Shown: positions 19,569 through 47,941, numbered from the stretch's first letter. The stretch: DNA of 64,000 nt from a candidate division FCPU426 bacterium (GCA_963847625.1 CAWKAR010000025.1:64001-128000), one strand, 5' to 3'. Translations and numbers: made by a program. The notes: a model not told the origin generated them from the letters alone.

Positions 19569-19650
19569 ATAACACCTTGCACCATTTGAGAATTTAAACC
19601 AGGTTGGCTGTTAAAGTGAATTTATAAATCCAGCGGACAAAAACCAAGAA

Positions 19651-20550: not shown

Positions 20551-20589
20551 TATTTAAATCCTCAAATTGGGTAGGTAAATCTTCTAGTT

Positions 20590-23190: not shown

Positions 23191-23216
23191 TATAAGAAAA
23201 AAGCTTAGAAACATTT

Positions 23217-23603
23217 TCAATTTTTTACCTCTTCTGGATTCTGTTTCGGGTTTTCCAATGATTTTTTAGATGGGCTTGCATCAGAATTAATAATAGAAAT
23301 AGGAGGTAATTTTCCCTTACTTTGAGCCGCTACTGCCAAAATATTCAACAATCTTTTATTATCACTATTTTGTAATTTATTTTCTCCCTTTGTTCGATCA
23401 TCTTCACATTTTTCCACAATAGCTATTGAGGTATTTATGAAGATTGCAACGGCAAAAAATACCCACCCAATTAGAGCAACACTTCCAAAAATATTTTTCC
23501 AAATAGTTTTTAACCTGTACTTTTGTCTGTTTTCAATTTTACCTGCCACAAAACTAAGAAATGGGGAAAGGAAAGATTTTATTATTACAATAAAATATCC
23601 CAT
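23217..23603 (-). CDS. Hypothetical membrane protein
   Basis: 128-aa ORF with a hydrophobic segment and a GGAG RBS; no family recognised. Confidence 0.5.
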   Translation of the reverse strand: MGYFIVIIKSFLSPFLSFVAGKIENRQKYRLKTIWKNIFGSVALIGWVFFAVAIFINTSIAIVEKCEDDRTKGENKLQNSDNKRLLNILAVAAQSKGKLPPISIINSDASPSKKSLENPKQNPEEVKN

Positions 23604-23747
23604 GTGAAAAACTCCAATGTGAATTTAAACCTTTCTCTGGTTTCTGTAACTATAAGCTTTATTTTGAACATAAATTACTAAATTTGATACTGGCCCACAC
23701 TGGTTAAAAGATAGAACTTTCTAAGTTTTATTTTAGACACCGCAAAA

Positions 23748-23910
23748 TTAACCAATTATATTTTCCATTTTAATTTCCTTGGCAACAATATCAACATGAT
23801 CACCTTCTATAAACTCTTTTTCTGAACAACATTTTTTAAACTTTCATGTGTGGGCATTCTTCCGAATCAATATTTTTACCGCAAATGTTACATTCCACAC
23901 GATCTATTAT
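23748..23910 (-). pseudogene. 3' remnant of a Cys-rich (zinc-finger-like) protein gene truncated by IS3
   Basis: Translates IIDRVECNICGKNIDSEECPHMK, then in a second frame KCCSEKEFIEGDHVDIV; begins exactly at the IS3 end. Confidence 0.45.
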
Positions 23911-23943
23911 TGACCTTCCCCCAATGTTTGATCCAAATTTAAG

Positions 23944-24774
23944 TTAGTTAAGGCCCAACTTTTCGGCCTTTGCTTCCATTGGGGTTTTTCCCCCCAAACT
24001 GCTGTGCGGTCTCTGCCAGTTATACACCTGCCTCCACCAATCCACGACTACCTGGGCCTCCGCTTTTGAAAGAAAAATTTCTTGGTTCAGGCACTCATCC
24101 CTAAACTTTCCGTTGAAACTTTCGATGAATCCATTCTGCCATGGACTCCCTGGTTCGATATATAGCACCTCTACGCCCTTCTCCTCAAGCCAGTTCCTCA
24201 GTTCTTTCGCCACGAACTCTGGCCCGTTGTCCACCCGCAGGCACTTTGGTGTCCCGTACTCCGTCATCAACTCGTCCAGCGTCTCCAGCACGTCCCGGCT
24301 TCTCATTCGCTTCTCCGCCCGGATCTCCAAGCATTCCCTAAATCCTTCATCCAACACCGTCAAAAACTTCACCTTTCCCCCGAACCATGTCAGGTCATGC
24401 ACGAAGTCCATCGTCCACACCTCGTTGGAACCCAAAGCCGGGTGGGGCCTTCTCCATTCCGTCGGAACCCTCTTCTTCCTGGGTCTCCTGCGCGGTAATT
24501 GAAGCCCTGCTACCTGGTAGAGCCTCTCCACCCGCTTGTGATTCACATCAAGGCCTCTGCGTTCCAACATCCACAACATCCGAGGGCTTCCGAAACGTCG
24601 GTTTCTTTGCGCTAACTTAACCATTTCCTGCAGGATCACCTGGTTCAACGGATCTTCTGGCTGGGCCTCATATCGAAAACTCGATCGATTTACCCCAAGA
24701 ACATCACAGGCTCGTCTTTCCGGTACTTCCTGAGCCTTCAGGGCTTCCACCATGCCTTTTTGCTCCTCGATCAA
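23944..24774 (-). CDS. IS3-family transposase OrfB (DDE integrase core)
   Basis: WTMDFVHD, VDNGPEF and PGSPWQNGFIESFNGKFRDECLN motifs. Confidence 0.95.
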   Translation of the reverse strand: MIEEQKGMVEALKAQEVPERRACDVLGVNRSSFRYEAQPEDPLNQVILQEMVKLAQRNRRFGSPRMLWMLERRGLDVNHKRVERLYQVAGLQLPRRRPRKKRVPTEWRRPHPALGSNEVWTMDFVHDLTWFGGKVKFLTVLDEGFRECLEIRAEKRMRSRDVLETLDELMTEYGTPKCLRVDNGPEFVAKELRNWLEEKGVEVLYIEPGSPWQNGFIESFNGKFRDECLNQEIFLSKAEAQVVVDWWRQVYNWQRPHSSLGGKTPMEAKAEKLGLN

Positions 24775-25040
24775 TACCCCTTTTTTTTTATGTGCTCTTG
24801 GAGAACCTGAATAGCCAGGGCCTGATCACCCGCTAACTGCTTGAGTTTCCGGTTTTCTTCTTCCAGCTGTTTGATGCGGTGGACTTCGGAAACTCCAAGG
24901 CTTCCGTACATGCGTTTCCAGCGGTAGTAAGTCTGCTCGGAAATGCCATGCTTTCGGAGAACTTCCTCAACGGCGGGAGCTTTCTCCGCCTCGCGGAGAA
25001 TAGCCACTATCTGCTCAGATAAAAACCGTTTCTTTGCCAT
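24771..25040 (-). CDS. IS3-family transposase OrfA; -1 frameshift site A9G4 at 24777-24789
   Basis: KKRFLSEQIVAILRE...HGISEQTYYRWK; A_AAA_AAG slippery site places OrfB in the -1 frame. Confidence 0.93.
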   Translation of the reverse strand: MAKKRFLSEQIVAILREAEKAPAVEEVLRKHGISEQTYYRWKRMYGSLGVSEVHRIKQLEEENRKLKQLAGDQALAIQVLQEHIKKKGY

Positions 25041-25106
25041 CTTTCCCCTCCCGATCTATAATCCAAAACTAACATATTTTTGGATCAGTTTTCGGGGGAA
25101 AGGTCA

Positions 25107-26144
25107 ACCTTAAACTCCCAAGGCCATAGAACGCGCAAAGGAAGAAAATGGGAAACCAACGCCATCCATTATATTTTGAGAAATGAAACTTATACTGGGG
25201 TTTTGATCTTTAATAGGGCTCATAAAAATTCAGTAAAACCCATAGAACGTCCTGAAAGCGAAACAATCCGCATTGAAAATGCCCACCCCGCCATTATTGA
25301 CAGAAAAACTTTTCTTTCTGCCCAGTTTTTCATAAAGCTAAGAAGTCCTAAGGTTGTTCACCCGCGAACTATCCATAGCGACTATATTCTAAGCAGTTTC
25401 CTTTTATGTGGAGAATGCGGTTCTCATATGGTTGGAACTACCGCCAAGGGTTCTAAATTTTTTTATTATTCCTGCCGGAATCACTTAAGAAGGGGTTCTC
25501 ATGGATGTGGGCAAAAATCTATCAACAAGGCCAAACTTGAAGAAATGGTTTTCACGCAACTTAGAAACCGCATTTTGACTGAAGAAAATATCTCAGAGTT
25601 AGTCAAACTGATTAATAAAGACCTTTCAGCTTATAAACGCGATTATTCAAATCTTTTGAAAGAAAATGATTCCCGAATTTTAAAAGCCAGGGAAAGCCTT
25701 CAAAAACTTTACTACGCCCTTGAAACTGGAAAGCTTGACCTTGATGACCTTGCCCCAAGAATCAAAGAATTGCGTTCTCAAATTTCCCAATTAGAGCAGG
25801 AAAAAACCAAGATCGAATCAGAGGCAAATGAGCCAACCTTGGAAATAAACGCCTCGGAAATCGGCCCTTACGTTGAAGATTTGCGGGGACTATTGGAGAA
25901 AGGCACCATTACAAAGCGGAAAGGTTTCTTAAAGTCTTTTATAAAGCAAATTGAATATAGCCACCAAAAAGGCGGCTCTATTGAATACACCATTCCTCTT
26001 GTGAAAAAACCTAATAACGAATTATCAAATATTGAAGTTCTGCCTATTAACCAAAATGGCGGGGTTGACGGGGCTAGAACACGCTTTCTCGCACCTGACA
26101 AACAAAATTTTCAGATGAACCAACTTCTTATTCCTGGGTTCTGA
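25107..26144 (+). pseudogene. Large serine recombinase, 5'-truncated (recombinase, zinc-ribbon and coiled-coil parts only)
   Basis: LNSQG...W...ILRNETYTG, HPAIID, LLCGECGSHM and YYSC motifs. The catalytic resolvase domain is absent, and the track start at 25080 lies inside the IS3 IR. Confidence 0.88.
26057..26080 (-). other. tRNA 3'-end-like att remnant (T-arm, acceptor strand, CCA)
   Basis: Minus strand reads GTTCTAGCCCCGTCAACCCCGCCA. Confidence 0.6.
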
Positions 26145-26152
26145 CTTGGTTT

Positions 26153-26205
26153 TTCTCTTCCGCACGCCAACGTTTGGAAACTTCCGCCTCGATGCCGGCA
26201 TGGTC
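26153..26205 (-). repeat. Direct repeat of the ubiX 3' end (copy A)
   Basis: 51/53 identical to 39112-39164; encodes DHAGIEAEVSKRWRAEE and continues KNQVRTQE to a stop at 26128. Confidence 0.92.
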
Positions 26206-26262
26206 ATTAACCAGGAAATGCCATTACACAGACCTCATAGGTGATCGGTACGTGGTGAATCA

Positions 26263-27651
26263 TTAGATGTTCCCAAGATCGATATCCACCCACGAGGGCG
26301 TCGGGGTGACCGTCGGCTGGGGCGAAGAAGCCTTTTGGGTTTCGGGGGATCCCCTCAAAAAGACCGCGAAATAACCCGCTTCCCCATTCGAGAAAGCCTC
26401 GGCGGGATAATTGGTCTGGATTCCGCTGTTCACCGCCTTGGAAATCCACGCAAGCGACGACCGGATGGCGTCGAGCCGGTAAAAGTTGGGGATCAAGTCG
26501 AAGGACCGCTTCACATAATCCTTGTAGGACTTAAATTGGTAAGGCCCGGCGGGATCCGCGAAGGAGGCCGCAATGGGGGCATGGATATCCAGTAGCATCA
26601 TATTCTTGATCCCCATTTCCCGGCTGAGGGCCGCCAGAACGGAGGGGGGCGTATACAGGGTCCAAATCACCCCAAAGCGGTGGTGTTTGTCGGTGAATAG
26701 GTAGGACCGGGCCACGTCGTCATAAAAGGAACAAAAAGCATTGGGATACTCGTCCGGGCCCGGCTTGCCGTTTTCCACCACCATGAAGCGGTTTTGAACG
26801 AAGGTTTTTATTTTTTTCTTATCCGGCAATTTTCGGTAGGTGCCCAGGGCCATGTGTCCGTCCTGGTACAAGGTGAAGGTGGCCATCTCGGGCTGGGGCG
26901 GAAGGAAGGTCCGGGAATCAAAACGGAACCCGGCATAACGCATTTGTTTTTCCGGCACGCCCCAATTGACCACGTTGTCGACGCGGTCGAAGATGCCGTT
27001 GAGGATGCCCAGGAGCCCGGTGGAGTCCTGGATCAAGGCGTAATCGGTTTTCCCCCCATTCCTTTCCTCCCGGGTCGCCATAGGAAGCCATTCCCCCATG
27101 TGGGTCCGGTCCCCGCCCTTGAACTGGATTTTCCCGGGGTAATAAAGGCACCGGGCCTGCGCCTGGTCGAAGGAAAGGTAAAAAACCATGGCCCTCTCCC
27201 GCATCAGGCCCCCATTGTCCAAAAGAAGCTTTTTTCCCCTGGGACCCAAGCCCTTAAAGCCCTTGACCCTCGCGAGAAACCGCTTGAAATACTTTTTGCC
27301 CCCCGCGTGATACTTGACCCGAAACCCGGCGTAAACGGCGGTCGCGGCGGGGCTGTTGGCCTTGAAATCCACGGCGCATGGGGCCGCGAGCGGGAACCCT
27401 CTCTTGTTCGCCCGGGCCTGCCGTGCCCAATCCACGTGAAGGATGAAGGGCCGCTCCCTCCTGGTCAAACGCCTGGGATGGGGAATGCGGATTTTGGAAA
27501 GTCCCTCGTAAAGCCACTCCCCGGCTTTCTTGTAAAAATAGCCCCGGAATTCCGAAACTTCTTTCGCGCTTGCTTTCCCGGCAAGGAATTGGATGAGGCA
27601 AAACACCAGTGTCAAAAGGGCAAAGATGAAAATGATTTTATTTTTTTTCAT
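26263..27651 (-). CDS. Exported protein with a phosphodiester glycosidase (NAGPA)-like C-terminal domain
   Basis: Signal peptide MKKNKIIFIFALL; ATFTLYQDG...QNRFMVVENG...ARS...MMLLDIH pattern resembles NAGPA-family proteins. Confidence 0.5.
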   Translation of the reverse strand: MKKNKIIFIFALLTLVFCLIQFLAGKASAKEVSEFRGYFYKKAGEWLYEGLSKIRIPHPRRLTRRERPFILHVDWARQARANKRGFPLAAPCAVDFKANSPAATAVYAGFRVKYHAGGKKYFKRFLARVKGFKGLGPRGKKLLLDNGGLMRERAMVFYLSFDQAQARCLYYPGKIQFKGGDRTHMGEWLPMATREERNGGKTDYALIQDSTGLLGILNGIFDRVDNVVNWGVPEKQMRYAGFRFDSRTFLPPQPEMATFTLYQDGHMALGTYRKLPDKKKIKTFVQNRFMVVENGKPGPDEYPNAFCSFYDDVARSYLFTDKHHRFGVIWTLYTPPSVLAALSREMGIKNMMLLDIHAPIAASFADPAGPYQFKSYKDYVKRSFDLIPNFYRLDAIRSSLAWISKAVNSGIQTNYPAEAFSNGEAGYFAVFLRGSPETQKASSPQPTVTPTPSWVDIDLGNI

Positions 27652-30007
27652 TCTCGATTTTCTTGTCGTAAACAAGGATATTCACTTTGTCCGCGCGGCC
27701 CTGGGAATCCAGCACCGATACTTCCCATTTCCCCTGTTCCGGGCTCCAGAAGAAAAGCTTATCCGGCTTTCCTTGCGCGATGAGCCGGCCATTCACGAAC
27801 CAGTAAACCTGGTCCACGTCGGGGCCGGCCTGGACCGATAACGTCATCCGCTGGCTTTCCAGGGGTATCCCCTGCTGGATCTCGTATTTCCCCTCGGATT
27901 TGGGCGATTGGATATGGGGCGTGAAGCGGGAGAAGAAATAAGCGCAATCCGGATTATGCCGGGGGATGGCCTCGAATTTTTTCCCGTGGCTCCTGAGATA
28001 CCGCGTCACGTCCGGTGGCCAGATCTCGAAAATTTTGGAGTAGTATTCCTCTGGCTTGCCCGTCATGCAATAACGGCAAACTTCCTTTCCGTCTTTTTTC
28101 CTGATCCAAACCCTTCGGTGGACCTGGCAGGGATGGTTGTCGCTGACGGCCGGGATGAACATATCCTCGATCACGTCCTTGCAATCGTCTCCGGCCGGCT
28201 GGCCCGAGAGGGCGCATATTTTGCGGAATTGGACTCCCGGCGGCCTCTGGAACCAGGAGTCATTGGAGCGGGTCAAGGCGTTGAAGAGATTGATGACCAC
28301 CGGGGCCGCGGCGTCGTGGCCGATCAAGGCGGGAGACCCCTGGTTATCCGTGTTGCCGAGCCAGACCCCGATGGTGTAATCCGGGTTATAGCCGACGCAC
28401 CAGGCGTCCCGGTGGCCGAAGGAGGTGCCGGTTTTAAAGGCCACCTTTCCGCGGGTGGGTGAAAATTCCCAGGAAGCGGGAATATCCGTTCTTTCCACCT
28501 TGGCCAGCATTTCGGAAATCATGTAGCTGGATTCCCGGGAAAGCACTTCCTTTCCCTTCTCCGGGCCTTGGGTTTCATCCTCAAAAAATCTCAGGCTTCT
28601 CATCTTCCCGCCGTTGGCCAGGGCCGCGTAAATCCGGACCATTTCCTCCACCGTCATGGGATAGGCCCCTAAAACCACCGACAGACCCGGTTCCAACTGG
28701 CCCCTTTCCCGCCCGATACAGCCGGCTTCCTTGATCCAAAATTCCAGGCCGTCGTTTCCTATGGATTCCAGGCTTGATTCCAACCCCACCGCGGGAATGT
28801 TCAAGGAGCGGGCCAAGGCGTCTTCCGCCGGAATGAGCCCCCCGTACTTCCCCTCGTAATTGGCCGGTTTAAAGCCGCCGTAATCGCGCGGGATATCGAA
28901 AAGCGTGGTCTTGGGTGTGATCAACCCGTGGTCCATCGCCAAGCCATACAGGAAAGGTTTCAAGGCCGATCCCGGGGAGCGGGGAATGTTGGCGCCGTTT
29001 ACCTGCCCACCCCTGGGGTCGTGGAAATCCGGGCTTCCCACGTAAGCCACCACTTTCATCGTGTGGTTGTCCACCATGATGACCGCGCCGTTATGGACCC
29101 CCTGGTTTCTGATGGGCGCTATGGCGCCTTCCAGCATTTTCAAGGCCAATCCCTGTAAATTGGGTTGGAGGGCCAGCTGGACCACTCCCGGGGCATGGCT
29201 GGATAGATGGGCCGCTCGAGCCACCAAATGGGGAGCCGGATTGGGATTCAAGTACCGGCCTTTGGGCAGGATGGAATGGAAAGCTTCCTCCGCCTCGATT
29301 TGGGGTGGCTTCACGATGGGAAGGATTTGCCCAAGGACCTTGTCCCTTCCCTCCCTCGCCTTTTCGGGGAACCGGTCGGGACGCCGCGCCGCGGGCGACC
29401 GGGGAAGGCTGATCAAAAGCGCGGTTTCACCCCAGGAAAGGAGCTTGGCCGGCTTGCCGAAATAAAGAAGCGACGCCGCACCCACCCCCTCGATGTTGCC
29501 CCCCATGGGAACGCTGTTCAGGTAGAACTCGAGGATCTGTTTCTTGGAATAGCGGGCCTCCAACTGCATGGCCCGGAAAGTCTCGATTCCCTTGGCCCAG
29601 AAGGTCCGGGGCCTGCGGTCCATCAGCTTGGCCACCTGCATGGTAATGGTGGAAGCCCCCGAGAGGATTTTATGGCGGGTCAAATTCAGGACGAGGGCCC
29701 GGACCAATGCCGCCGGATTCACCCCGTAATGCCAGTAAAACCACCGGTCCTCGTAGGCCATAAAACCCCGGATGACCTGGGGTGAAATTTCATCCAGTTT
29801 CAAGGGAAGGCGGTACTTGCCACTTTTGGAAAGGGTGAGCCGCAATAGGCTTCCGTCGGAGGCCAGGTAGGCCGTGGAATAGTCGCCGTGAAGTTTCTTA
29901 ACCGGAAGGGGCACAAGACGGAGAAGGACGTAAAACCCGGCCAGGCACAACAAAAAACGGAGGATGAACCGTTTGTGATTGCTAAAGGGCCATTTCATAG
30001 TTTGCAT
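27638..30007 (-). CDS. pbpC: Penicillin-binding protein 1C
   Basis: EDRWFYWHYGVN and GASTITMQVA (GT51); GSALKPF, SLN and KTGTSFGHRDAW (transpeptidase); C-terminal VYWFVNG domain; downstream of A2M. Confidence 0.93.
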   Translation of the reverse strand: MQTMKWPFSNHKRFILRFLLCLAGFYVLLRLVPLPVKKLHGDYSTAYLASDGSLLRLTLSKSGKYRLPLKLDEISPQVIRGFMAYEDRWFYWHYGVNPAALVRALVLNLTRHKILSGASTITMQVAKLMDRRPRTFWAKGIETFRAMQLEARYSKKQILEFYLNSVPMGGNIEGVGAASLLYFGKPAKLLSWGETALLISLPRSPAARRPDRFPEKAREGRDKVLGQILPIVKPPQIEAEEAFHSILPKGRYLNPNPAPHLVARAAHLSSHAPGVVQLALQPNLQGLALKMLEGAIAPIRNQGVHNGAVIMVDNHTMKVVAYVGSPDFHDPRGGQVNGANIPRSPGSALKPFLYGLAMDHGLITPKTTLFDIPRDYGGFKPANYEGKYGGLIPAEDALARSLNIPAVGLESSLESIGNDGLEFWIKEAGCIGRERGQLEPGLSVVLGAYPMTVEEMVRIYAALANGGKMRSLRFFEDETQGPEKGKEVLSRESSYMISEMLAKVERTDIPASWEFSPTRGKVAFKTGTSFGHRDAWCVGYNPDYTIGVWLGNTDNQGSPALIGHDAAAPVVINLFNALTRSNDSWFQRPPGVQFRKICALSGQPAGDDCKDVIEDMFIPAVSDNHPCQVHRRVWIRKKDGKEVCRYCMTGKPEEYYSKIFEIWPPDVTRYLRSHGKKFEAIPRHNPDCAYFFSRFTPHIQSPKSEGKYEIQQGIPLESQRMTLSVQAGPDVDQVYWFVNGRLIAQGKPDKLFFWSPEQGKWEVSVLDSQGRADKVNILVYDKKIENEKK

Positions 30008-30253
30008 TACAGCGTTTTTTTATGGGACAGGCTATCCTTTTTTCCCAATAGTTGTTAAATGAGCAATCCGCATATTACAGGGACAAGGAAATAACGTGCT
30101 TTGCCGCATTGACCTAACAGTTGAGATTCGCAAAGCTTTAAACAATATTTAGTGGACAAAGTAAAGTGCTCGAAATAAATCGTCTTTAAGCTTTGATGAT
30201 TCTTCTAATACGCCTACCCGTCTCGGACAAGTCCAAAATTCAATTCCCTCAAT

Positions 30254-30816
30254 TTAGTTCTCTTTTATCACAACAATAGTCCCTATCTTGCAATAAGTTT
30301 TAATTTCATCTATTTCTTCGTTTGTGACGGCAATACATCCCTTTGTCCAATCAATAAAATGATGCAAGAAACCTAACCATCCGAGACCCTTCTTGAGTCC
30401 ATGAATGCCTACAATGCCGCCTAATTTTGTATCACTCGGTGGAATTTTATGACTCTGTTGGGCTTTTATAATATTTCCAAATTCATTTTGATGAATAACT
30501 CCATCGTGAAAACCTTTCAGGGCATCCGCTTCATTGGGATAACTGAGATAAATAAAAAAATGAAAATCGCTGGTATTGTTCATCGCAACAACTCTATACA
30601 CCCCAACAGGCGTTTTATTGTCACCGGCAACTTGTTTGGCACCAGCGCCTCCTTTGCCAATCGAACACTTGTATTGTTTAAAAATTTGGCCGCCTTTTTT
30701 ACTTTAAGGGCATGTTCCGATTTAATGATTTCTAAAGAAAAATCCTTGGCGTAAATCAATCCATCAACTGAGTGTAAGAAAATTGAAAAGAAGAAAATAA
30801 ATTTAAGATATTTCAT
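30254..30816 (-). pseudogene. L,D-transpeptidase (YkuD family), frameshifted at T6 30695-30700
   Basis: Adding one base gives signal peptide...KQVAGDNKTPVGVYRV...LSYPN...GIHG...WTKGCIAV. Confidence 0.85.
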
Positions 30817-30853
30817 GGATGGTATTTTCAAGTTGGTATTTTTAGGGGCGCTT

Positions 30854-33800
30854 TTAATATTTCGCGGGAGCAATATTAAGCGTTTGGCCCTCGTTGGATC
30901 GCCCGAAGATTTCAGGGTCGTACATGGCTTCGGCCTCCAAACCAGGCACCTGGAACGATCCGGGCGTGACCGCCCGGACGCTGTAGGAGAAGGTCTGGTC
31001 CCCGTCCACGTCCTTCGAGAAGAGAAGAACCCGGTCATCCCTGAAATCCTGGAAGACCGGCGAGAAGCTGCATTCCGGCTCGAACGAAAGGTTGCCCCGC
31101 GAGGAAAGGCGCGGATTGTCCACCTCGAACCCGGCCGGCAGGAGATCCACCACCACCAGGTTGTCCAGCGGCTTGGTGCACTTCACGCGCAAGGTCACCA
31201 CCACCAATTGGCCCTGGGAAATCGACCCCAGGTTGATGGTATTCCCGTTCTCATCCCTGTACTCGCGGCTGACGGTCAGGCCATTCGCGACCGATTCCTT
31301 TTCCGATTTCAGCTTGGTGCCCTCGGCCATGAGATGGTAATAAAGGTCGCGGTCGCCGGTATTCTTCAGGTCAACGTCCTTGCCCGAAATCTTCTCGTCC
31401 TTCACCACCGCCGTCTCCCCGCTCAATTCGGCGGGGGCTTCCCCCTTCACGGACCATTGGGCGCTCAAGGGATAGTTCTGGGTGGTGGCCCGGACCGCCT
31501 TCCCAACAGCCATGAAACAGAGGGCGTCCTCCTGGGTCGTGCCGTACCAGCCGTGCCCGAATTCCTTCAGCTTCTTGCCGAACTCGATGATGAGCTTGGG
31601 GATCTCCGGGTTCTTGGGGTCCGCCTCGGTCATGGCCAAAAGGTAAAGGGCCATTTCCCGGTTGGGGGAGAACCAATCCCCGTTCATCAACCGGGCCAGG
31701 CTGGTGGGAAGGTAATGCGCGGGAAGAAGGGATAGGGCGGTCGTGCGATCGCCCAGCGCGGAATAGGCCCGGGACAGGTAACAGCGCTCGCTCAACCGGC
31801 GCGCCTTCGGGTCCTGCATCTGGTCCTTCATGGCGGCCATCGACTCGGGATCGGGCCGGTCGGCCAGGACTTTCAGGTAAAGCACGTAGGCGCTGTCCCC
31901 GATCTCGACGTTTTGCTTTCGGCGGTCCAGCCTCCCACCCCCTTGCCGGTGACCTTGATGGCCCCAAGCCGGTTCATGATCCTATCCAGGACATTCTCGT
32001 TGACCTGGTAGCCCTGCTTTTTCGCCGTGAGCAGGAATTCGGAGACGTAATTGGACAAGTATTCCCCGCCGCCCTCCTCCTGGCCTGGCCAGAGCGCGAA
32101 GTCCCCGTCGGACAACTGCATCTTGCCCAGGTCGTCAATGGCGTCCTGCACGTACATTTCCACCGCGTTGGCCCTTCCGCTGAAACGCCCCGTCAAAAGG
32201 CCCATATCCTTGAAGAAAAGAAGAGGGAAAGCCTGTGAGGTCCTCTGCTCGGCACAGCCATAGGGGTAATGGATGAGGTAATCCATGCTCCCCAGGAACG
32301 TCAACAAGGGGCTGGAAGAAACCGTCATGCGGACCTTTTGTCCTTGCCGGATGAAGCCGCCGGGAACCGACAGGACCTGGGTCCCGCCCGCCCCCAACTG
32401 GCCGAAGCTGATTTGCGTCGTCAAGGGATTGCCGGGCCTCACCGCCAGCTCGGTTTCCACGTCGAAATCGTTTCCATCCTCATCCGTGGCGGTCACCTTG
32501 AAATGCGCCACGCCAGCGTCCATTTGGGCCTTGGCGTGGAACAGGATCTGTTTTTGCCCCTCCTCGCCCAGGCTGATATCCTGTTTTTTCTCGCCGTCGA
32601 CCGCGACGGGACCGCTGGCGGAGAGGCTGACCTTGATGCTCTGGGGTTTCTTCGTGTTGTTATAGACCAGGACCGGCATGTCAATGTGGTCCCCGGGCGC
32701 GAGAAACCGGGGAAAGGACGGCTCCACCACCACCGGATCCGCCACCTTCACGTGGAAGGCGGAAGCCCCGAATTTATTCGCCTGCACTCCCAGGGCCATG
32801 ACCCTTACTTCCCCGTGGAACTTGTCCGTCGGGAAGTGGTAGCTGACCTTCCCCTCCTTGTCCGCCGTCAGGATGCCGGAGAAGAGGGCGAAGGATTTCA
32901 CCCGTTTGGCTTCGATGGGGTTCAAATGGCGGAATTGGAAGGATTCACCCTCGTCCCCGCCCACCGCGTCCTTGCGGTCCAGGTCGGGAAGGATGTCCTC
33001 GAACAAGCTCAAGGTGGAGGTCGTGAGGCCCCGCTTGCGGTAGAAATACTTGAAGGGGTCGGGCGTGGTGAAAGCGATGATCTGGAGGATTCCCTCGTCC
33101 ACCGCGGCCAGGACCACGCTGGCCCCCGGCGTGCCGGTGGACAGGTTCACGTCGATGCCGTCCTTGGACTTTACGGACTCGGGCGCTTCCCACTTGAAGT
33201 CGATCTCATGGCTGGTGGTGTCCATCGCCAGGGTCGCGATCCCGAAGGAAGCCATCGGCATGGTCCTTAATTCCTCATTGGGCTTGCGCACCAGGAGCCC
33301 CACCACGTAGGCGTTGGGCATGTAGGCGGTCTCGACCGGGGGAAGGCTCAGCACGTTGAGCCCCGCCGCAACCGGCACCGTCGAGGTGTAAAAAACCCTC
33401 TCCCGTTCGATGGAAAGGATCAGCCTTCCGGCGAAGGGCGCGCGCACTTCCAGCTTGGGGATCTCGCCGGACTGGTATTGGGTCTTGTCGAGGTTGAGGG
33501 ACAGCTTGTCCGGCTCGCCCAGGTCGGCGGATTCCTGCTGGTTCTCCTCTTTTTCCTCGGGTCCGGACACCGCCACCATGACGGAACTGCGCATGGACTC
33601 CTCGTTGCCCAGGTAGATGGTGTATTCCCCCGGCTTATCCGGCGTGAAGGTGTAGGAACCCTTTCCGTCCACGTTGACTTCTTTGCCGTCCACCACCTGC
33701 TCGTAATAGGCCGACTCGTAGCCGCGTCCGGACCATCCGCTCCGCCTGAAAATGGAATACCAGACTTTGCGCTTGACGAGAAGGATGGCTTTTTCCACCT

Positions 33801-36800
33801 TGGTCGGGTCGCCGTCCGGGGTGATGGCCACGTACTTGATGTGGACTTCCTTATTGGGGGCCGATTCCTTACCTTCCTCGCACTTGAGGCCCAGGTAATA
33901 GGGATAGCGGTGGACCCGGATGGCGGCGTTGGCGCCGACGGGCCTCCCCCCGGTGTCCAACACCTCGGCATAGACCTCAGCCTGGAGCATGGAAGGAGGA
34001 AGCATGGAGATGGGCACGGGTAATTGCACGTCAAAATTGCCCGCCGCGTCCGTCGACCCGTCCGGGACCTTCAAACTTTCGCCCGTGAACTGCCGGGTGG
34101 GGTCGGAAAAATGGTAGCTTTTCCATTTCTTGTCCGTGAATTCAATCGGGCTCAATTGGACGGCGGTTCGCACCTTCAGGCTCACGCCCGGCGCCCCGAA
34201 GAGCTGGCGCACCGCGACCCGGAAGGAGAGTTGCTCCCCGGGATTGGCGGTTTTCTTGGCGGGACGCACCTCGACCTTGATCTTGTTGGGGATGAATTCC
34301 TCCACCTTAATGGAGGTGGACGCCAGGTGGACCCCGTTCTCCAGTCCCAGCTCGACGTTCAGCATGCCGGTGGTGATGTCCTCCTTAATGGGAAAATTGA
34401 AGGTCGCCATGCCGTAGTCATGGAGTTTGGCGGTGAGTTTGGCCACCTGGTTCCCGTTTTCATCCTTGATGACGAGGTTCACGGGAAGGTCCTCGGGGAT
34501 ATCCAGGTCCGCCCGCCTCACGACCGCCGTGAAATTGGCCTTGTCCCCGGGGCGGTAAAGGCCCCGGTCCGAGGTCAGGAACGCGTCCCATCCGGTGGAT
34601 TGGAAAGGATCCCCGCTCACGTCGAAGCGCGATTGGTTCAAGGCCGGCTGGTCCAGGCGGAGGTAGGACCAATCGTCCCCCAATTGGGCCACGACGACAT
34701 AGGCGTTGAAATGGTAGGGGTTGTTCTTCCAGTCCTTGAACCAGACCCGTCCCTCGGGATCCGTTTCCTTTTCCTGGATGACCTGGTTAGTGTCGGAAAT
34801 CAGCTGTAATTTCACCCCAACCGCCGGGGTCAGCCTGGAGATGGAAAGCACCTGCACCAAAAGGTCGTCGCCCGAGTACTTCAGCATCATGCCCAGGTCG
34901 GTGCAAAGGAAGGAACGGGAGTCCCGTCCGCCGCCGTTGGCTCCGTTCAGGGAAACCACGAATAGCCCCTTATAAGGCTGGCTGTGCCATTGGCTGAAAT
35001 CCAGGTCCGTTTCCGTTTCCTGGTTGATCTGCCCTTCGTTCACCTTCACGTTTCCGCCCCAGACATGGGCGCCCAACCCCGCGGTCGAGCCAGAATCGGA
35101 CTGGTAGTTATTCTCGCTGGGTTCGTCCCCTTCACCCTCATCCTCGTCCTCTTCCTGTTGCCGCTGGAAATAAGCGCGGCGCTGGGGCCGGCGGTAAGAG
35201 TGCCGGTAGTAGTAGTTGGGGTAACTGCGCCAGTTCTTCAGGAAATCGACGATGTTGTTGCGGAACACTTTTTCGACGCCGACGGAATAATTGTCCAGGT
35301 TCATGGTTTTAACCGAGACAATCTTTTTTCCCTCCAGAGGGATCAACCGCCCGTTATCGCCGAAACGCACGTAGGGCTCGATATCTTCCAGACGGATATC
35401 CTGGTCGCTGGCATGCTCCAGGATTTCCCCGGAAATGGCGCGCAGGCCCTCCTTCACGTGGATTTTGTAGTTGATGTTGGGTTGGAAATCCGCTTTCAAG
35501 ACGGCGTAGCAATATTCCGTATCCACCTTGAAGGGAATCGCCGGTTCGATGGACACGTTGTTGCGCACTTGGGAGGAAGAAGCCGGAAGCGTGAACAGGA
35601 TGGAGATCAGCGTGTTTCCCGGAACATGGTGGAGCTTGATCCCCTCCACCAGCATCTTGGGCTTGGCGGGAAGGGTGATGGTGCTTTGGTACTTGTCGGC
35701 CAGGGGCTTCCCGCAATCCACGCAGGACAAGCCCGCCGCCACGGTTACCGTCAGGGTCTGGGGTTCGGTTTCACGCACCAGCCCCCCCGCCTTGAAGAAA
35801 AACCGCGTGGGAAGGGTTCCCTGTTCCAGCTCGTAGTTCAGGGAGCTTCCCGCCCGGGATACGGAAAGGCTCTGTTTGAGCAGGTTCATGTCCACCGGAT
35901 AGTTGAACTCGATCTCGCCCACCAGCTCTTTTTCCGTTCCCTTGATGAGGTCGTAGGTATAGAAAAGCCGGCTGGAAACCACCTTCATGGCTTCGGTCGA
36001 AAAAGTGGTATTGGAGCTTTTTTCCAGGAAAAATTGTTTCGAGGAAAGCTTACCCGAGACGTTCAAGTGCACCTGGTAAGTGGTGGCGGGTTTCAGGGGA
36101 GCCGCGGGGGTGAAAACCAGGGTCGTGGAATCCTCCAGGCGGCTGGTTCCGGGCAGGGGGGGTGTAATCTCGAACGCGGAGTCCAAGGCGCTGATGACTT
36201 GGACGTCCCCGGAGAATTTGGCCCGGATGACCGTATTGGCCGAGGTCACCATTCCCCGGGGGGTAAAACTGATGATATGGGTGGTGAAAGTATTATAGAT
36301 CAAAAGATAAATCAGCCAGGCCGCGGCCAGGCACGCCAATATTAGGGCGGCCTTCCGGGCCAGGGGTTTCTTGGATAACTTCAATACGCTTTCCCCGCCT
36401 TTGGCTCCTTTTTGCTTGAGGAATCGGGCCGCCTTCTGGAAAAAAGGGCTTTGCCGCAGAATTTTCCATTTGGAACGCCAATCCAGGTCCGGCAATCCGT
36501 CCTTCTTGGCGATTTTTTCCGAAATTCCATAAGACTCGTAAAGACGGGTCAGATAGATAATCAATACTTGCAGGGACCAAGCCGGGTTTCTTTTGAGGAG
36601 GGCGAAAGGGATGGGGAGAAGGGCGTAGAGCCAGATCCAAGCCCGGAGGTTGCGGTGCTTCGTTTCCCGCATCCTTTCCCAAAACACCAGGAACAGCCCG
36701 GAAAGGATGAGGTGCAGCGCCAGCATCCAATTGTTTCTCTCGAAAAAATAGGGGGAATAAAAAGGGTTCATGAGGAACGTCAACCCGCCTACGGTGTAAA

Positions 36801-37836
36801 AAGCGAGAGCGCGGATGAAGGTTTGGGGTAATTTCAGGATTTGGGATCGGACCTGGGCGGTTAAAACCGTCAGGACGAGGATAACCATCGGGATGATCAG
36901 GGAACCGGTCTGGTTTTGAATGTAAATAAATCCCAAGAGCGAACCCAGGCTCAGGAAAACTTCCTTCGCGTGGGGTTTCAGCCAGGGATTCCAGCCCCAG
37001 AGCAAACCCAAAACCAGGATTTGGAAGGGCCAGCCGAAATTACCATGGAAGAAGTAATAATATGGAAGCATCGGGACAACGGCGAAAAGCGATAGATAAA
37101 GCCGCCCCCGGGTGGCATTCGCTTCCTTCAACTTTTCCCACAAAAGAAAAACCAGGGCCGAGAGCAGGAAATGGTGGATCAGGACGACCGGACCCCACCC
37201 TTTAATGACCTGTTGAACCCCGCGGACCGTTTCAAAGATGGGAAGTTCCGGCCAGTAGCGGTAGATCCAGTCCGTGAAATAAAACAGGACAAAGGCTTTT
37301 AGGATTTCGGGGTCCCGGCGGAATAAGAACCGGCGCAGCAGGGGGGAGACGCCCCAGAAAATGATGGAAATCCAGTAAACGGGGGGAAGCCCCATGAGGC
37401 AAACCGCGAAGGCGGCCGCCGTGAATACCGGCGGAAGAATATTGGAGTGGAATTTTTCGAGCGCCCGGATTTTTTTCAAATCATCCCGGACCATCTCCCA
37501 TCCCAAAAGAATCGTGGAATACACCACCAGGGCCAGCGCCGTGATCCAGACAATCTTCAGGTGGGAGCTGCTCGTCGGGACCTTATCGAAAAATTTCGGG
37601 GTCAGAAAGGAAAAGATCATCATGAGGGAAAAACCCTCAACCGCCCGGAAAGGATACTTCAGGTAAATCTTGCGCAGGAGGCCGACCGCCATGAACAACG
37701 GCAGGAACAGCCACAAATTTTTATTTTGGATCAGGAGGACGGCATTGGGGTGGTTCATCCAATTGGGAATGATTGCGACAAGGGCGATTAGAACGGTGAT
37801 TCCAAACCAGGCGTTTAATATTTTCCTGGGAATCAT
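30854..37836 (-). CDS. Bacterial alpha-2-macroglobulin with a polytopic N-terminal domain; single frameshift at C5 31938-31942
   Basis: DRGLYRPGD, VEEFIP, AAVDEGIL, PRFLAPGD and thioester YPYGCAEQ. The C-terminal ORF has DLLPAGFE, RDDRV and AEAMYDP; one extra G joins the two ORFs. Confidence 0.92.
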
Positions 37837-37880
37837 AAAGCACCTCGCGGAACGGACAAACCGGCTTATATAATAAAGAG

Positions 37881-39017
37881 ATGAAACAAAAATTGATTTT
37901 CTGCAACCTTGTCATTCTTCTTGTCCTGGCCTCTCGGGTAGGTCACGGCCAGGAAAAAAACGCGTTCCTTTCGGTTCGTATCCTTGAAAGACTAAAACTG
38001 CAGGAATTGGAGGTTCAGTCCCCCGCGAATCATGGCGTTTGGAACCGAATCAAATTAGCACCGGGCCAAATGTCCGTCAACGACAAAGCACAAAAAGAGG
38101 CCTCCTGGGGCTCTCCGGATTCAACCGTTAAAATAAGGGCTTTAAATTTAAGGCGAATTTATCCTGGGATGATCGTCATCACAACGCAGGCCGGGGAAAA
38201 GGGTCCGGAACTGCTCATTTTAAACCAGGTCTTCCTGGGGGATTACACGGCTTGTGTCACGGCCTTTGAATCCGGTTATGACCCTTCCCAGCCGGAATAC
38301 TTGAAGGCGCTGGCGGCCATCATCCGCGCTTACGCCTCCTCACACCGCAAACGTCACGACTCCTATGATCTCTGCGACCTCTCCCATTGCCAAGTTTACC
38401 AAGGGCTCCCAAGCCATTTCAGTTTTTGGAAGCAAATGGCGGACGCAGGCACGTCATTCAGGTTTCCTTCATCAATAGATCCGAAATCCATTTATTTCCA
38501 CCGCTGTTGCGGAGGTGTTTTGGAGTCAGCGGACCAACTCTGGGGGGGAGCGCCTTCCGCCAGCCGGACGGGTCCAGATGAGTGGGATGGCAAAACCCTC
38601 TGCCAGGACGATCCTCTATTCCAGTGGACTTCCTCGACGGAGGTAAAAAACGTCGAGTCCGTCCTGAGAACCATGGCCCGTCTCCCTTCAGCGGCTGTCT
38701 TGAGAACATTCAGGGTCGATAAAAAAACAACTCATGGGCGGAACAAGGTATTGTCGGCGCGATTCCAAATGCCGGAAGGGGGAACCAGGGAAATCCGCGA
38801 AAATGCCATCCATTTCGAATCCGAATTCGGGAAACACTATGGCTGGCGCGTCTTTCCTAGTGATTTGTTCGGGATCAAACGGGAAGATGATATTTTCAAA
38901 TTTACCGGTCGGGGTCTTGGCCACGGTGTAGGGCTTTGCCAGTCCGGCGCCTTGAAACTGGCCCAATTGGGGTGGACCTGGGAAAAAATTCTTAACTTCT
39001 ATTTTCCTTCAAGGTGA
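37881..39017 (+). CDS. SpoIID/LytB domain protein (lytic-transglycosylase-like)
   Basis: EYLKALAAIIRAYA, YDLCDLSHCQVY, FHRCCGG, GRGLGHGVGLCQ and ILNFYFP motifs. Confidence 0.88.
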   Translation: MKQKLIFCNLVILLVLASRVGHGQEKNAFLSVRILERLKLQELEVQSPANHGVWNRIKLAPGQMSVNDKAQKEASWGSPDSTVKIRALNLRRIYPGMIVITTQAGEKGPELLILNQVFLGDYTACVTAFESGYDPSQPEYLKALAAIIRAYASSHRKRHDSYDLCDLSHCQVYQGLPSHFSFWKQMADAGTSFRFPSSIDPKSIYFHRCCGGVLESADQLWGGAPSASRTGPDEWDGKTLCQDDPLFQWTSSTEVKNVESVLRTMARLPSAAVLRTFRVDKKTTHGRNKVLSARFQMPEGGTREIRENAIHFESEFGKHYGWRVFPSDLFGIKREDDIFKFTGRGLGHGVGLCQSGALKLAQLGWTWEKILNFYFPSR

Positions 39018-39080
39018 CAACCATTCATGGCCGTCTTGAGGATCATAAATTTCCAGTTATGCACTTGGCCAAGCATATAT

Positions 39081-39661
39081 TCAGTCATTATTAGCCATTC
39101 TAATTTTTTTCTTCTCTTCCGCACGCCAGCGTTTGGAAACTTCCGCCTCGATGCCGACATGGTCGTAAACCCGGGCGATGACCGTATCCACAAGATCCTC
39201 AATGGTCTTGGGATTGCCGTAAAAGCTGGGAGTCGCCGGGATGACATGGGCGCCAGCCAGGGTGAGAAGTTCCATATTCTTGATTTGAATCAGGGATAGG
39301 GGTGTCTCCCGGGGAACCAATATCAGCTTACGGCGTTCTTTCAAGAACACCTCCCCAGAGCGGGTGATCAGGTTATCGGTAATGCCATGGGCCAGCTTCC
39401 CCAGGGTGGCGGTGGAGCAAGGAATGACCACCATGGCCTCAAATTTGTTGGAACCGCTGGCCGAGGGGGCTGTCAGGTCGTTTTCGCCCCATTCCCTCAC
39501 GTGGGGGGGAGGTTCAGCCCACCCTCATGGGACGCCACGATGCGGGCGGCGGAGGATACCACCGCGTGCACTTCCCAATCGTCATAGGGAAGGTGTTGGA
39601 AAAACCTTCTGGCATAGAGGGTCCCTGATGCGCCCGTCACCGCTACTAGGATCTTCTTCAT
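39081..39661 (-). pseudogene. ubiX: Flavin prenyltransferase UbiX, frameshifted at G7 39503-39509
   Basis: MKKILVAVTGASG in one frame; SASGS, PCS, LKERRKLILVPRETP and PSFY in another; G8 would restore the ORF. Confidence 0.9.
39112..39164 (-). repeat. Direct repeat within the ubiX 3' end (copy B)
   Basis: 51/53 identical to 26153-26205. Confidence 0.92.
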
Positions 39662-42483: not shown

Positions 42484-43728
42484 TTATCGCACGAGCAGGA
42501 CTCTTTTTATTTTAGTGCCGAAGGGTTCCACGAGGTCAATGAGGTAAACCCCGCTGGCACAGGGGTCGCCATACTTGTTGGTCCCATCCCATTGGTACGA
42601 CTGGCTGATGGGAGCTTCGAGTTCTTCGGAAGCGAGCGTTTTAATGTGTTCGCCGGCCGAATTATAAATCCGCAAGTCGTAACTCCCTGGATACTGGGTA
42701 TATTCCACGAAAATGGAAACCGGATCCGAGGGATTGAAGGTGTTTTTGGACACGTAAAAGACGTCGGCGACGACAGGCGTAAGGGTGATGGTGGGAGTGG
42801 CGGTGGGCGTGGGAGTAATCGTAGGGGTGTTCGTGATCGTAAAGGTATTGGTGATCGTGGGGGTATTGGTAAGGGTGGGGGTGGGCGTGGGGGTGGGCGT
42901 CGGGGAGACCGTCGGAGTCATGGTCGGGGTTAAGGTAAAGGTCAACGTATTGGTGGGCGTGGGGGTGACCGTCGGGGTGTCCGTCGGAGGAAAGGTCGGG
43001 GTGACGGTCGGCGTATTGGTGGGGGTCCCTAACGCGGAACAAGAGTTTACGGTATAATTTTTGTATTCATTTTGGTTTGGCGAATTTAAATAGCCGCTCC
43101 TGATTCCAACGGCCCCGGTCGTAAAGGTGGAGTCCGTAACGTTAAATATCAGCTGGTTGCCGTTGCCGTTATTGAAGTTCAAGTAGCACATAAAATTAGT
43201 CCCGCAGCAAACGACTGTCATATGGACCCAGGTTCCGACGGTATAGGTTGGTGTTGACGCGGTGCTTATATAAGACCAACCGCTTGACGAGTGTTTCTCA
43301 AACTGCCACTGCCCATAGTTGATTTGAAACGAATAGAAATCCGCCCCGGTTTGGCCCTTGAAAATGATGCCGAAAATCCCGCCAACTTGCGCGGACATGA
43401 CATCGCACTGGATGGTGTAGTCGGTCAACGCGGGGTTGAAATTCGCGGGGGTCACCAAGAATTGTTCGGCACAGTAGGTGGGATTGGCCGTATTGAGCAA
43501 AATCCCGCCCGAGGCGCTGAAGTAATTCGTGTAATTCGGGTCCGGAGTCCCCGGGTCGCCGTAATAAAAATTGTAATTGGAGAGGCTGGCATTCGAGGAA
43601 TAGTTATCCTGGAAAAGAACCCCCCCGAGGCTTGGGCAACAACCCTGGCCATAAGCCAAACCGGAGGATCCCGCGAAAATAAGGGCGAATAAAACAGGAA
43701 AAGAGAGATGTTTACAGATAGTTTTCAT
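42484..43728 (-). CDS. Secreted protein: concanavalin/DUF1080-like domain, Pro/Thr linker, FlgD-Ig/T9SS-CTD-like tail
   Basis: Signal peptide; TPT repeats; tail SKNTFNP...LRIYNSAGEHIKTL...WDGTN...SGVYLI. Confidence 0.75.
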   Translation of the reverse strand: MKTICKHLSFPVLFALIFAGSSGLAYGQGCCPSLGGVLFQDNYSSNASLSNYNFYYGDPGTPDPNYTNYFSASGGILLNTANPTYCAEQFLVTPANFNPALTDYTIQCDVMSAQVGGIFGIIFKGQTGADFYSFQINYGQWQFEKHSSSGWSYISTASTPTYTVGTWVHMTVVCCGTNFMCYLNFNNGNGNQLIFNVTDSTFTTGAVGIRSGYLNSPNQNEYKNYTVNSCSALGTPTNTPTVTPTFPPTDTPTVTPTPTNTLTFTLTPTMTPTVSPTPTPTPTPTLTNTPTITNTFTITNTPTITPTPTATPTITLTPVVADVFYVSKNTFNPSDPVSIFVEYTQYPGSYDLRIYNSAGEHIKTLASEELEAPISQSYQWDGTNKYGDPCASGVYLIDLVEPFGTKIKRVLLVR

Positions 43729-44046
43729 TGTTTTTCTTTATCAACCTCATCCATATATATTAATTTAGCCAGATTACCGCCAGACCATTATCAATAATTA
43801 TATCGCCCTTTCACTGGACACTGGGCTGGATTTTGCGAAACCAGCGTGAGCCATCAGTCAACCACTAATTGTTATCAGCTGATTTATTTTTGCGGGAATG
43901 GCTTGAGAAAGGGGATTCCGGCCGGCGAGGAGGATATGGATGGGGTATAGGCTACCCAGCCTGGTCCGGACACCAGTTTTTAATTCCCTTCCCCGGAAAC
44001 CATCACAACCAAATTCCCCTCGTATCTTGAAATCTGCTTTCAGTCA

Positions 44047-47616: not shown

Positions 47617-47941
47617 CGACTCACCAATCGATCGGATGAAAAATTGAAACCTCTGAAAAACTAAAATAAAGCGGCAAACAGAGGTTTCGACCCCAAAGAT
47701 TTCCGCAGGAAATTGTGGGGTTACCTTCAATGGTTGCTGAAAAAGTTGGCGATAAGCCGACTTTTTCAGAGGTTACAAATTAATAATTTCCGAGCCGCTT
47801 TTCAAAATGACTCATAATATAGTGTCTAGCTGATAAACGTCAGATCATCGCTAACCGTTAAAAACGTCACATCATTGATGACTGCCTCTTTAGAAGGAGT
47901 AAAAATTATACTCATGAACATCTCTTGAAAGGGAGGTATTC

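Follow-up and report, generated by a model that had tools for sequence, protein, structure and literature searches.

A conserved trio of thioester alpha-2-macroglobulin, PBP1C and SpoIID-type genes in candidate division FCPU426, a likely variant of the type I macroglobulin operon

Bacterial alpha-2-macroglobulin (A2M) genes have been described in operons of two types (PMC5764988, PMC3735191): type I, exemplified by yfhM-pbpC of E. coli, and type II, exemplified by the yfa operon and by the mag operon of Pseudomonas aeruginosa. For the first, a combined role of A2M and PBP1c in defense and repair has been put forward (PMC5764988), and PBP1c is described as having no known role under laboratory conditions (PMC7554673); the reason for its association with A2M has been open for two decades. 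We consider here a 13-kb block in a 64,000-nt stretch of a candidate division FCPU426 bacterium (GCA_963847625.1, CAWKAR010000025.1:64001-128000; “the window”). The block had been predicted to hold five genes, and all are present (Table 1): SpoIID-like, A2M, L,D-transpeptidase (YkuD) and PBP1C genes, recognized by Pfam and TIGR profiles, and a gene for a NAGPA-like exported protein of 462 amino acids (here called X470), recognized by its fold. The conserved unit among them is a trio, consisting of the thioester A2M, PBP1C, and a SpoIID-type lytic transglycosylase. The YkuD and X470 genes are passengers, seen beside the trio at this locus only.

Conservation was assessed in 93 genomes of the phylum, each at least 80% complete and including the 4.4-Mb source genome (G000), leaving 92 others. 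An A2M MG10 match occurs in 37 of the 93 (36 of the 92), and the locus was examined in each of the other 36 A2M-bearing genomes (in G057 around its SpoIID gene; the G029 locus has no A2M), as well as in G088. In 21 of the 92, representing nine families, a SpoIID gene adjoins pbpC or the A2M gene. All three genes share one locus in 16 genomes, with SpoIID no more than 500 bp from pbpC or A2M; in G089 it lies 6.3 kb away on the same locus as the other two; and in G054, G055, G057, and G062 it adjoins pbpC, with A2M on another stretch or contig. Within the source family SpoIID is divergent from A2M in all five other members, while elsewhere the order is A2M-pbpC-SpoIID, and in 10 loci the pbpC and SpoIID genes share 4 bases. 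In the congener G001, SpoIID-A2M-pbpC, with an unbroken A2M gene, lies 83 kb from ubiX, and neither YkuD nor X470 accompanies it. There are ten A2M-pbpC loci with no SpoIID in the stretch examined, which for some is limited by contig ends (G003, G008, G010, G019, G021, G027, and the second loci of G036, G059, G062, and G065); in G007 the stretch ends inside A2M.

The original prediction took all five genes for a single envelope-defense kit, proposed a survey of A2M neighborhoods, and named lack of conservation of the accessory genes beside A2M-pbpC as the outcome that would speak against it. YkuD and the NAGPA-fold gene gave that outcome, standing at the A2M locus in 0 of the 92 other genomes; SpoIID, the third accessory gene, is a conserved partner.

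Some loci have additional features. In G055 (C4, approximately 5000-43400) two different A2M genes flank pbpC-SpoIID, and a 12-kb metal-transport block separates the trio-type A2M gene from pbpC; in G072, 4.6 kb of other genes lie between A2M and pbpC. A PGA_cap (CapA) gene adjoins SpoIID in G001 (L001 18526-19698); its homolog in the source genome is the N-terminal part of an 802-aa open reading frame on another contig (C60:156228-158636).

The window A2M exceeds the cutoffs of six Pfam families (MG2, bMG3, bMG5, A2M_BRD, A2M, and bMG10), and the CAEQ thioester motif predicted for it is present. The intact G001 protein scores 305-312 bits against YfhM and 79-102 bits against a yfa-type A2M. 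In a FastTree phylogeny of 48 rows, from which three duplicates and all rows lacking CxEQ were dropped, the window A2M groups with pbpC-type and not yfa-type A2Ms. A single 22-row clade (support 100) contains the SpoIID-linked A2Ms; 19 of its rows are linked (two of them across contigs, by inference), one (G027) is unlinked, and two (G007 and G012) are unlabeled. Every full-length clade member examined has CxEQ. The phylum has another set of A2Ms, 1800-2000 aa long, on the yfa side of the tree (L081, L083, L084, L085, L087, L113, L114, L120); pbpC, SpoIID, and yfa genes are absent from the stretches examined around them.

The clade is also set apart by its N-terminus. Three to eight hydrophobic segments are found within the first 600 aa in 17 of 18 full-length members, vs. 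none or one in eight other pbpC-type A2Ms, YfhM included; the lipobox pattern present in YfhM is found in 0 of the 18, and the window protein has no cysteine within its first 45 aa. Its N-terminal region has six hydrophobic segments at a Kyte-Doolittle threshold of 1.7, or eight at 1.4, and includes a single internal repeat (E 8e-10 in G001; one copy is missing in G004). Residues 455-495 contain 13 K/R and 1 D/E, forming a basic stretch before the last hydrophobic helix; by the positive-inside rule, the body of the protein is therefore predicted to be periplasmic. The N-terminus is likely a multi-pass, membrane-anchoring region in place of a lipoprotein signal. Nine strong matches to it, of 11 in all, were found among 7991 candidates scored, and a profile search of 1.84 billion representatives gave eight matches at E ≤0.001, six of them at 1e-10; the Atlas yielded no usable match. 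The fused region, for which no relatives were detected outside the lineage, would be a new A2M anchor. One contig outside the surveyed genomes encodes a 1973-aa GCSEQ A2M (P0130) with a hydrophobic N-terminus of about 200 aa, so that the membrane-anchored type may extend beyond the survey.

The window SpoIID-type protein, with an N-terminus that by eye resembles a signal peptide, exceeds the cutoffs of PF08486 (39.3 vs. 23 bits) and TIGR02669 (95.1 vs. 83.3 bits). Its E130, H159, C165, H169, and C170 align with the catalytic Glu and Zn ligands of Clostridioides difficile SpoIID (5i1t/5txu), reported as E101 and as H134, C140, H145, and C146 (PMC6221140), and are invariant in 21 of 21 aligned homologs. 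The C. difficile enzyme is active only after an amidase, peptide-free glycan being the sole substrate accepted (PMC6221140). The window protein is thus a predicted lytic transglycosylase, with putative specificity, by homology, for peptide-free glycan. PBP1C reaches 659 bits against TIGR02073 (cutoff 494); a motif scan places transglycosylase motifs at 86 and 117, SxxK at 347, SxN at 401, and KTG at 525, followed by a BiPBP_C tail. The pbpC gene begins 846 bp downstream of A2M here and 121 bp in G001. A predicted complex of PBP1C (36-635) with SpoIID (26-378) scored 0.00, which is uninformative in either direction.

Related SpoIID genes also occur outside the phylum. A GTDB scan with the single SpoIID protein found nothing, while one with the SpoIID alignment found 35 related loci, 13 with A2M within the flank: nine yfa-like (a CxEQ A2M with DUF1175, DUF2135-like, or transpeptidase-only genes) and four trio-type. 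Among the best 80 of 563 metagenome SpoIID loci (38 of the 80 at least 10 kb long), 26 have an A2M, nearer the yfa type. A quick tree of 61 SpoIID rows places the window protein in a 17-row group (SH-aLRT, the approximate likelihood ratio test, 98), sister to Leptospira yfa-type SpoIIDs (SH-aLRT 95); E. coli YfaQ, on a long branch, has no placeable position. The suggestion that the locus is a hybrid fares partly well on this evidence, since related SpoIIDs do sit in yfa/Mag-type A2M operons of other phyla, although YfaQ itself could not be placed; a hybrid origin from a pbpC-type A2M and a yfa-type SpoIID is plausible. The accompanying division, thioester with the pbpC type and SpoIID with the yfaS type, is not clean, because SpoIID-bearing yfa/Mag-type operons have CxEQ A2Ms (CxEQ was checked in the nine GTDB loci only; 26 of L150-L229 share the arrangement). 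In these yfa/Mag-like CxEQ operons, the two parts of YfaQ are apparently encoded separately, by a transpeptidase-only and a SpoIID gene (L055, L057, L060, L062, L066-L069, L075); the L068 operon also has VanW and AMMECR1.

From the observed gene content, motifs, linkage, and hydropathy we infer a location, a substrate, an order of action, and a defensive role for the trio. The reading we favor, with moderate confidence, is a periplasmic protease trap coupled to wall repair. The multi-pass N-terminus would anchor the A2M in the inner membrane, a role that the lipid has in YfhM and MagB in the mag system, and the body of the protein would lie in the periplasm. A protease arriving there would cleave the bait region and be caught via the CAEQ thioester, the mechanism established for type I A2Ms. 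Damage by an attacker's amidase or peptidase would leave peptide-free glycan strands, which the SpoIID-type enzyme would clear as anhydro-disaccharides, and PBP1C would polymerize and cross-link new glycan in the gap. The cutter would make the “trap and repair” idea a three-step one, with one catalytic residue for each step: the thioester Cys, SpoIID Glu130, and PBP1C Ser347. More tentatively, and with the odds rather against it, the trio may be a phylum-wide third A2M architecture, a trap-clear-rebuild machine in which a thioester A2M fused to a repeated multi-pass membrane domain of no known family works with PBP1C and a SpoIID-type enzyme; that domain may signal bait cleavage into the cell, and the trio would be a link between type I (pbpC) and type II (yfa/mag) operons.

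One alternative, unlikely but the strongest of those considered, is that the trio is a housekeeping unit for wall remodeling, with A2M as an anchored periplasmic scaffold, perhaps regulated from the membrane, that places the SpoIID cutter and the PBP1C builder for local turnover. The 4-base overlap of the cutter and builder genes would suit this, as would two reports on type II systems: deletion of yfaQ in E. coli gives wider cells and groups with envelope mutants with no attacker involved (bioRxiv 2025.02.11.637708), and in the Mag system the proteins assemble into a complex that MagB anchors (PMC3735191, PMC5764988). A scaffold, however, sits poorly with the retention of CxEQ throughout the full-length clade members examined; the unit is also patchy, to judge by the A2M matches, and its neighbors vary among G000, G001, G004, G022, G024, and G072, both as for accessory defense loci.

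A second group of questions concerns how the block came to lie at ubiX. The five genes do stand between direct repeats, as originally noted, identical at 67 of 77 positions; the next best 77-mer in the 4.4-Mb genome matches at 43 of 77, so the repeat is not a chance one. The right copy is the coding 3′ end of ubiX, and both copies terminate in a stop codon of their own. In its tail the left copy agrees with the G001 ubiX at 21 of 32 bases and the right copy at 15 of 32; on this weak evidence, the original end is likely the left one, now displaced. The distance from ubiX to the ubiA gene after it is no more than about 1.5 kb in 23 of 27 family loci, the exceptions being the source genome, G001, and two loci ended by contig ends; a second ubiX end is found in 1 of 31 genomes. 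The 19.5 kb between ubiX and ubiA in the source genome comprise the 13-kb block and an outer low-GC stretch, which is likely older, because G001 keeps 84 bp of a DUF5131 end behind its ubiX (L040 17760-17843).

Four of the block genes have GC content at third codon positions (GC3) of 0.57-0.82, native for this genome. Their identity to G001 is 79-88%, where the median over 42 orthologue pairs is 81%. A foreign origin is rejected for these four on both counts and accepted for YkuD; what entered at ubiX, in a single event, was probably DNA of the lineage itself rather than a foreign kit. Its history would then run as follows: the trio would have gained the YkuD insert and the resident X470 gene in the source lineage, and the 13-kb block would have recombined into the ubiX 3′ end, supplying a replacement end. 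The idea that the genes were inserted as one unit is in this sense likely to be right for the source genome, but as one event and not as an evolved five-gene system. The adjacent serine recombinase was considered as the agent of the ubiX duplication and is unsupported: it is truncated, and its end resembles tRNA-Asp.

The repeat might instead have arisen without integration, when ubiX was duplicated or rearranged or when strains were mixed in the assembly. This would bear on the history alone, and we consider it doubtful: the lack of an integrase and the native character of the block DNA would fit it, but copies that differ at 10 of 77 bases and each bring a stop codon form the pattern of a target-restoring element, and both lie well inside one 184-kb contig.

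The A2M gene is not a single frame in the assembly. Its frame breaks near 31932, about 110 codons past the thioester motif, giving 1987 and 343 aa, by a one-base gap relative to G001; it is a single frame in G001, G022, G024, G004, and G072. The YkuD gene has a break between 30646 and 30694. It is improbable, in our view, that these frameshifts are real and the block a decaying island, no longer working in this strain. Two of five genes are broken, and the neighboring recombinase is truncated by an insertion sequence (IS), as decay would have it; the A2M, on the other hand, has no internal stop, and both before and after the break it matches the unbroken G001 protein at 89-94% identity. Nor is the defect confined to the block: among 60 queries (proteins of relatives with a best match of at least 60% identity in the source genome, duplicates included), five match two frames there, representing three distinct genes, A2M, ubiX, and one presumed to be glmS-like (C25:175820). 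Two of the three are housekeeping genes with the same type of one-base break, so the frameshifts are likely one-base assembly errors. The breaks in A2M and YkuD are probably, judging from these comparisons, assembly or sequencing errors. The one-base frameshifts of ubiX and the glmS-like gene relative to G001 also mark the assembly as one with indel errors.

The passenger genes can be taken in turn. The YkuD gene scores 32.2 bits against PF03734 (cutoff 23.4) and has the His/Cys motif of the family (IHG...GCI), which supports the label L,D-transpeptidase; cross-linking is not implied, however, as its closest matches (63-66% identical) are named YafK-type. It lies in an AT-rich insert of 37% GC that is absent between A2M and pbpC in G001 and G022, and its GC3 is 0.32, vs. 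0.73-0.82 for its neighbors. Although 39 of the 93 phylum genomes have a YkuD match, only one is among the 27 other members of the family. Apart from the window gene there are 43 matches in the 93 genomes, and none is at an A2M locus. The YkuD gene is a foreign AT-rich insertion, and a passenger.

X470 had been called NAGPA-like, and its fold bears this out, with three subdomains as in 3ohg: against that structure its model (mean predicted local distance difference test, pLDDT, 76) gives a Foldseek E of 7.6e-9 and a Z score of 16.5 (root-mean-square deviation 4.0, 248 residues aligned, 10% identity), the next unrelated row having Z 2.4, and its Atlas lead is PF09992 at 0.90. By sequence it matches nothing in Pfam or the PDB. 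DGGGS, an invariant motif of the NAGPA/DUF2233 family according to PMC13474241, is absent from X470 and from the matching columns of 10 aligned homologs; DIH at 356-358 is taken, by eye, as its position. X470 is at best phosphodiester glycosidase-like by its modeled fold, and on motif fails membership of NAGPA/DUF2233. Proteins of this type (L020-L028), exported, with DIH for DGGGS and no Pfam match, constitute a divergent phosphodiester-glycosidase-like family. X470 occurs in 15 of the 93 genomes; in seven of the 14 others there is an A2M match as well, each time on a different contig. The source genome has a paralog on another contig (C26:78598-79947), and in G001 X470 is on a contig other than that of the trio. 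X470 is a resident gene of the source family. Its start overlaps the end of pbpC by 14 bases.

That all five genes form one selected envelope-defense kit moving as a unit is, accordingly, very improbable: all lie inside the repeat, all seem exported or envelope-related, four are co-directional, and X470 overlaps pbpC, but YkuD and X470 never recur at the A2M locus, G001 has the trio without either, and YkuD is compositionally foreign. A false lead is thereby removed, with the YkuD and NAGPA-fold genes placed outside the system.

Returning to the anchored protease trap coupled to wall repair, with the trio as its conserved unit, a number of observations weigh against it or parts of it. In the literature, too, defense and repair by A2M and PBP1c has no more than the standing of a hypothesis (PMC5764988, PMC7554673). 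The surveyed genomes are kin rather than independent, and the counts are descriptive. G027 has a clade A2M, the hydrophobic N-terminus, and pbpC, with SpoIID absent within 20 kb; the G012 A2M has no pbpC in the following 1.6 kb; G088 has SpoIID with neither A2M nor pbpC at its locus; G076 has SpoIID, yet a single hydrophobic segment in its A2M N-terminus; and in the source family SpoIID, being divergent, is outside the operon. “Multi-pass” rests on hydropathy, the fold model of the N-terminus (pLDDT 44) being unusable, and beyond the last helix the shorter N-termini of other families have no clear homology to those of the source family (best E 0.002). In the quick, unfinished tree the pbpC-linked SpoIIDs make two groups (three label changes), with five outside the group of the window protein. 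As to the passengers, the X470-pbpC overlap suggests co-transcription in the source genome, and a YkuD match lies near a related SpoIID in two of the best 80 metagenome loci, one of them with a yfa-type A2M. As to the insertion, no integrase is present inside the 13-kb block, and the adjacent serine recombinase, truncated by an IS, ends in tRNA-Asp-like, not ubiX-like, sequence. Finally, the frameshifts could be real.

Table 1. Features of the 13-kb block and its surroundings, with positions counted from the first letter of the window.
Feature	Position	Strand	Remarks
SpoIID/LytB-type gene	37881-39017	+	378 aa; core gene; divergent from A2M, 44-bp gap
A2M (thioester alpha-2-macroglobulin) gene	30854-37836	-	core gene; type I-like; six Pfam families
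A2M N-terminal hydrophobic region	36292-37836	-	residues 1 to ~515; no Pfam match
CAEQ thioester motif in YPYGCAEQ	32245-32256	-	C1861; GCAEQ is residues 1860-1864
PBP1C gene (pbpC)	27638-30007	-	789 aa; core gene; TIGR02073 and Pfam
YkuD gene	~30254-30816	-	PF03734; inside AT-rich insert 30045-30815; passenger
X470 (exported NAGPA/DUF2233-fold protein) gene	26263-27651	-	462 aa; passenger
ubiX gene	~39081-39661	-	frameshifted near 39510; coding 3′ end is the right repeat copy
Right direct-repeat copy (ubiX coding 3′ end)	39098-39174	-	77 bp
Left direct-repeat copy (orphan ubiX 3′ end)	26128-26215, core 26139-26215	-	own stop codon
Low-GC accretion between 13-kb block and ubiA	19569-26127		signal peptidase paralog, DUF5131-tcmP pair, IS30, small open reading frame, IS3, serine recombinase remnant
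Large serine recombinase remnant	25101-26144	+	without catalytic N-terminus (no resolvase domain)
ubiA/mqnP-like prenyltransferase	18684-19568	-	usual downstream neighbor of ubiX; far edge of whole insertion

Elsewhere in the window, positions 42484-47730 encode two large exported proteins with Pro/Thr-rich linkers (one laminin G-like with FlgD-Ig, one reprolysin with Ig), between menaquinone and leucine genes and absent there in G001. A second IS30 transposase lies at 9661-10641 and an IS481-like transposase at 48165-49112. No tRNA was found in the 64 kb, and promoter and terminator scans were at shuffle level (8 vs. 6.9 and 16 vs. 22.9, respectively). Fragments resembling the 3′ end of tRNA-Asp occur at 26053-26084 in the window and at C16:11082, C28:5421 and 5568, and C36:7806, with tRNA-Asp itself at C16:23559-23636; elements that target tRNA-Asp have likely left them as att scars. 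In 11 relatives (L124, L126, L127, L129, L132, L134, L135, L139, L143-L145) ubiX and ubiA stand about 0.5-1.2 kb apart, and small insertions may be frequent at this site.

In form, the block resembles a known kind of mobile DNA. Genomic islands can insert into a protein-coding gene at its 3′ end and make the gene whole again; the block shares with these the duplicated target end with a new stop codon, but differs in having no integrase and in cargo that is native in GC and at orthologue-level identity to the congener. Of its proteins, X470 shares the fold of the NAGPA/DUF2233 glycosidases but not their motif. The SpoIID-type protein shares with SpoIID of C. difficile and Bacillus anthracis (4rwr) the catalytic Glu, an HxxxxxCxxxHC Zn site, and a GHGVG motif; its profile E values, however, are only 1e-10 to 1e-11, it falls below the cutoff of the TIGR02870 equivalog (49 vs. 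235 bits), and its locus has neither sporulation context nor an amidase gene.

Budd and coworkers (2004) reportedly made the founding survey of bacterial A2M operons, which may mention SpoIID-linked loci. A literature search, made mostly without subscription papers and without supplements, found no description of an A2M-PBP1C-SpoIID trio, and on macroglobulin and SpoIID together nothing beyond a proteomics listing; the accessible part of bioRxiv 2025.01.14.632903 has no A2M or SpoIID content.

Among A2M operons, the SpoIID link recalls type II (yfaA-yfaT-yfaS-yfaQ-yfaP, or magABCDEF of P. aeruginosa), in which A2M is likewise linked to a SpoIID-like domain: the C terminus of YfaQ is SpoIID-like by structural prediction (bioRxiv 2025.02.11.637708), and related SpoIIDs occupy the YfaQ position in yfa-like operons. 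YfaQ/MagE (DUF2300), however, has no SpoIID profile match at E 1e-4, and there is no DUF2300 match in the window. Membrane anchoring of the A2M is common to both, by MagB in type II (PMC3735191, PMC5764988) and, as predicted here, by a region fused to the A2M in the trio. Type II differs in other ways too. Its A2M lacks CxEQ, and the window A2M has CAEQ; type II has a transpeptidase-like half where the trio has a full bifunctional PBP1C; and the partners DUF1175, DUF2135, and DUF2138 are found neither in the window block nor at the trio loci, none of which is matched by YfaA, YfaT, or YfaP queries. Yfa/Mag-like operons of Leptospira, Myxococcota, and others come closer in combining a CxEQ A2M with a related stand-alone SpoIID. 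They differ in their DUF1175, DUF2135-like, and transpeptidase-only genes, in a 1500-aa A2M of another clade, and in having no PBP1C (0 of the best 80 metagenome loci and 0 of 9 GTDB loci).

The closest match is to type I, represented by E. coli yfhM (ECAM)-pbpC and Salmonella Sa-A2M. Shared features are the CxEQ in YPYGCxEQ (YPYGCLEQ in YfhM), a GGD-bearing bait region, the set of macroglobulin (MG) domains, and, in most relatives, a pbpC gene directly downstream of A2M. YfhM, at 1653 aa, has a lipoprotein signal with a Cys anchor; the trio A2M, at 2328 aa in G001, has no lipobox and has instead a hydrophobic, repeated N-terminus. The yfhM-pbpC operon also lacks a third, SpoIID-type gene, which in the trio is conserved. 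From these sequence comparisons, the trio is likely a form of the type I A2M-PBP1C operon that has not been described before, one in which the A2M has a membrane anchor fused to it and a SpoIID-type gene as a partner.

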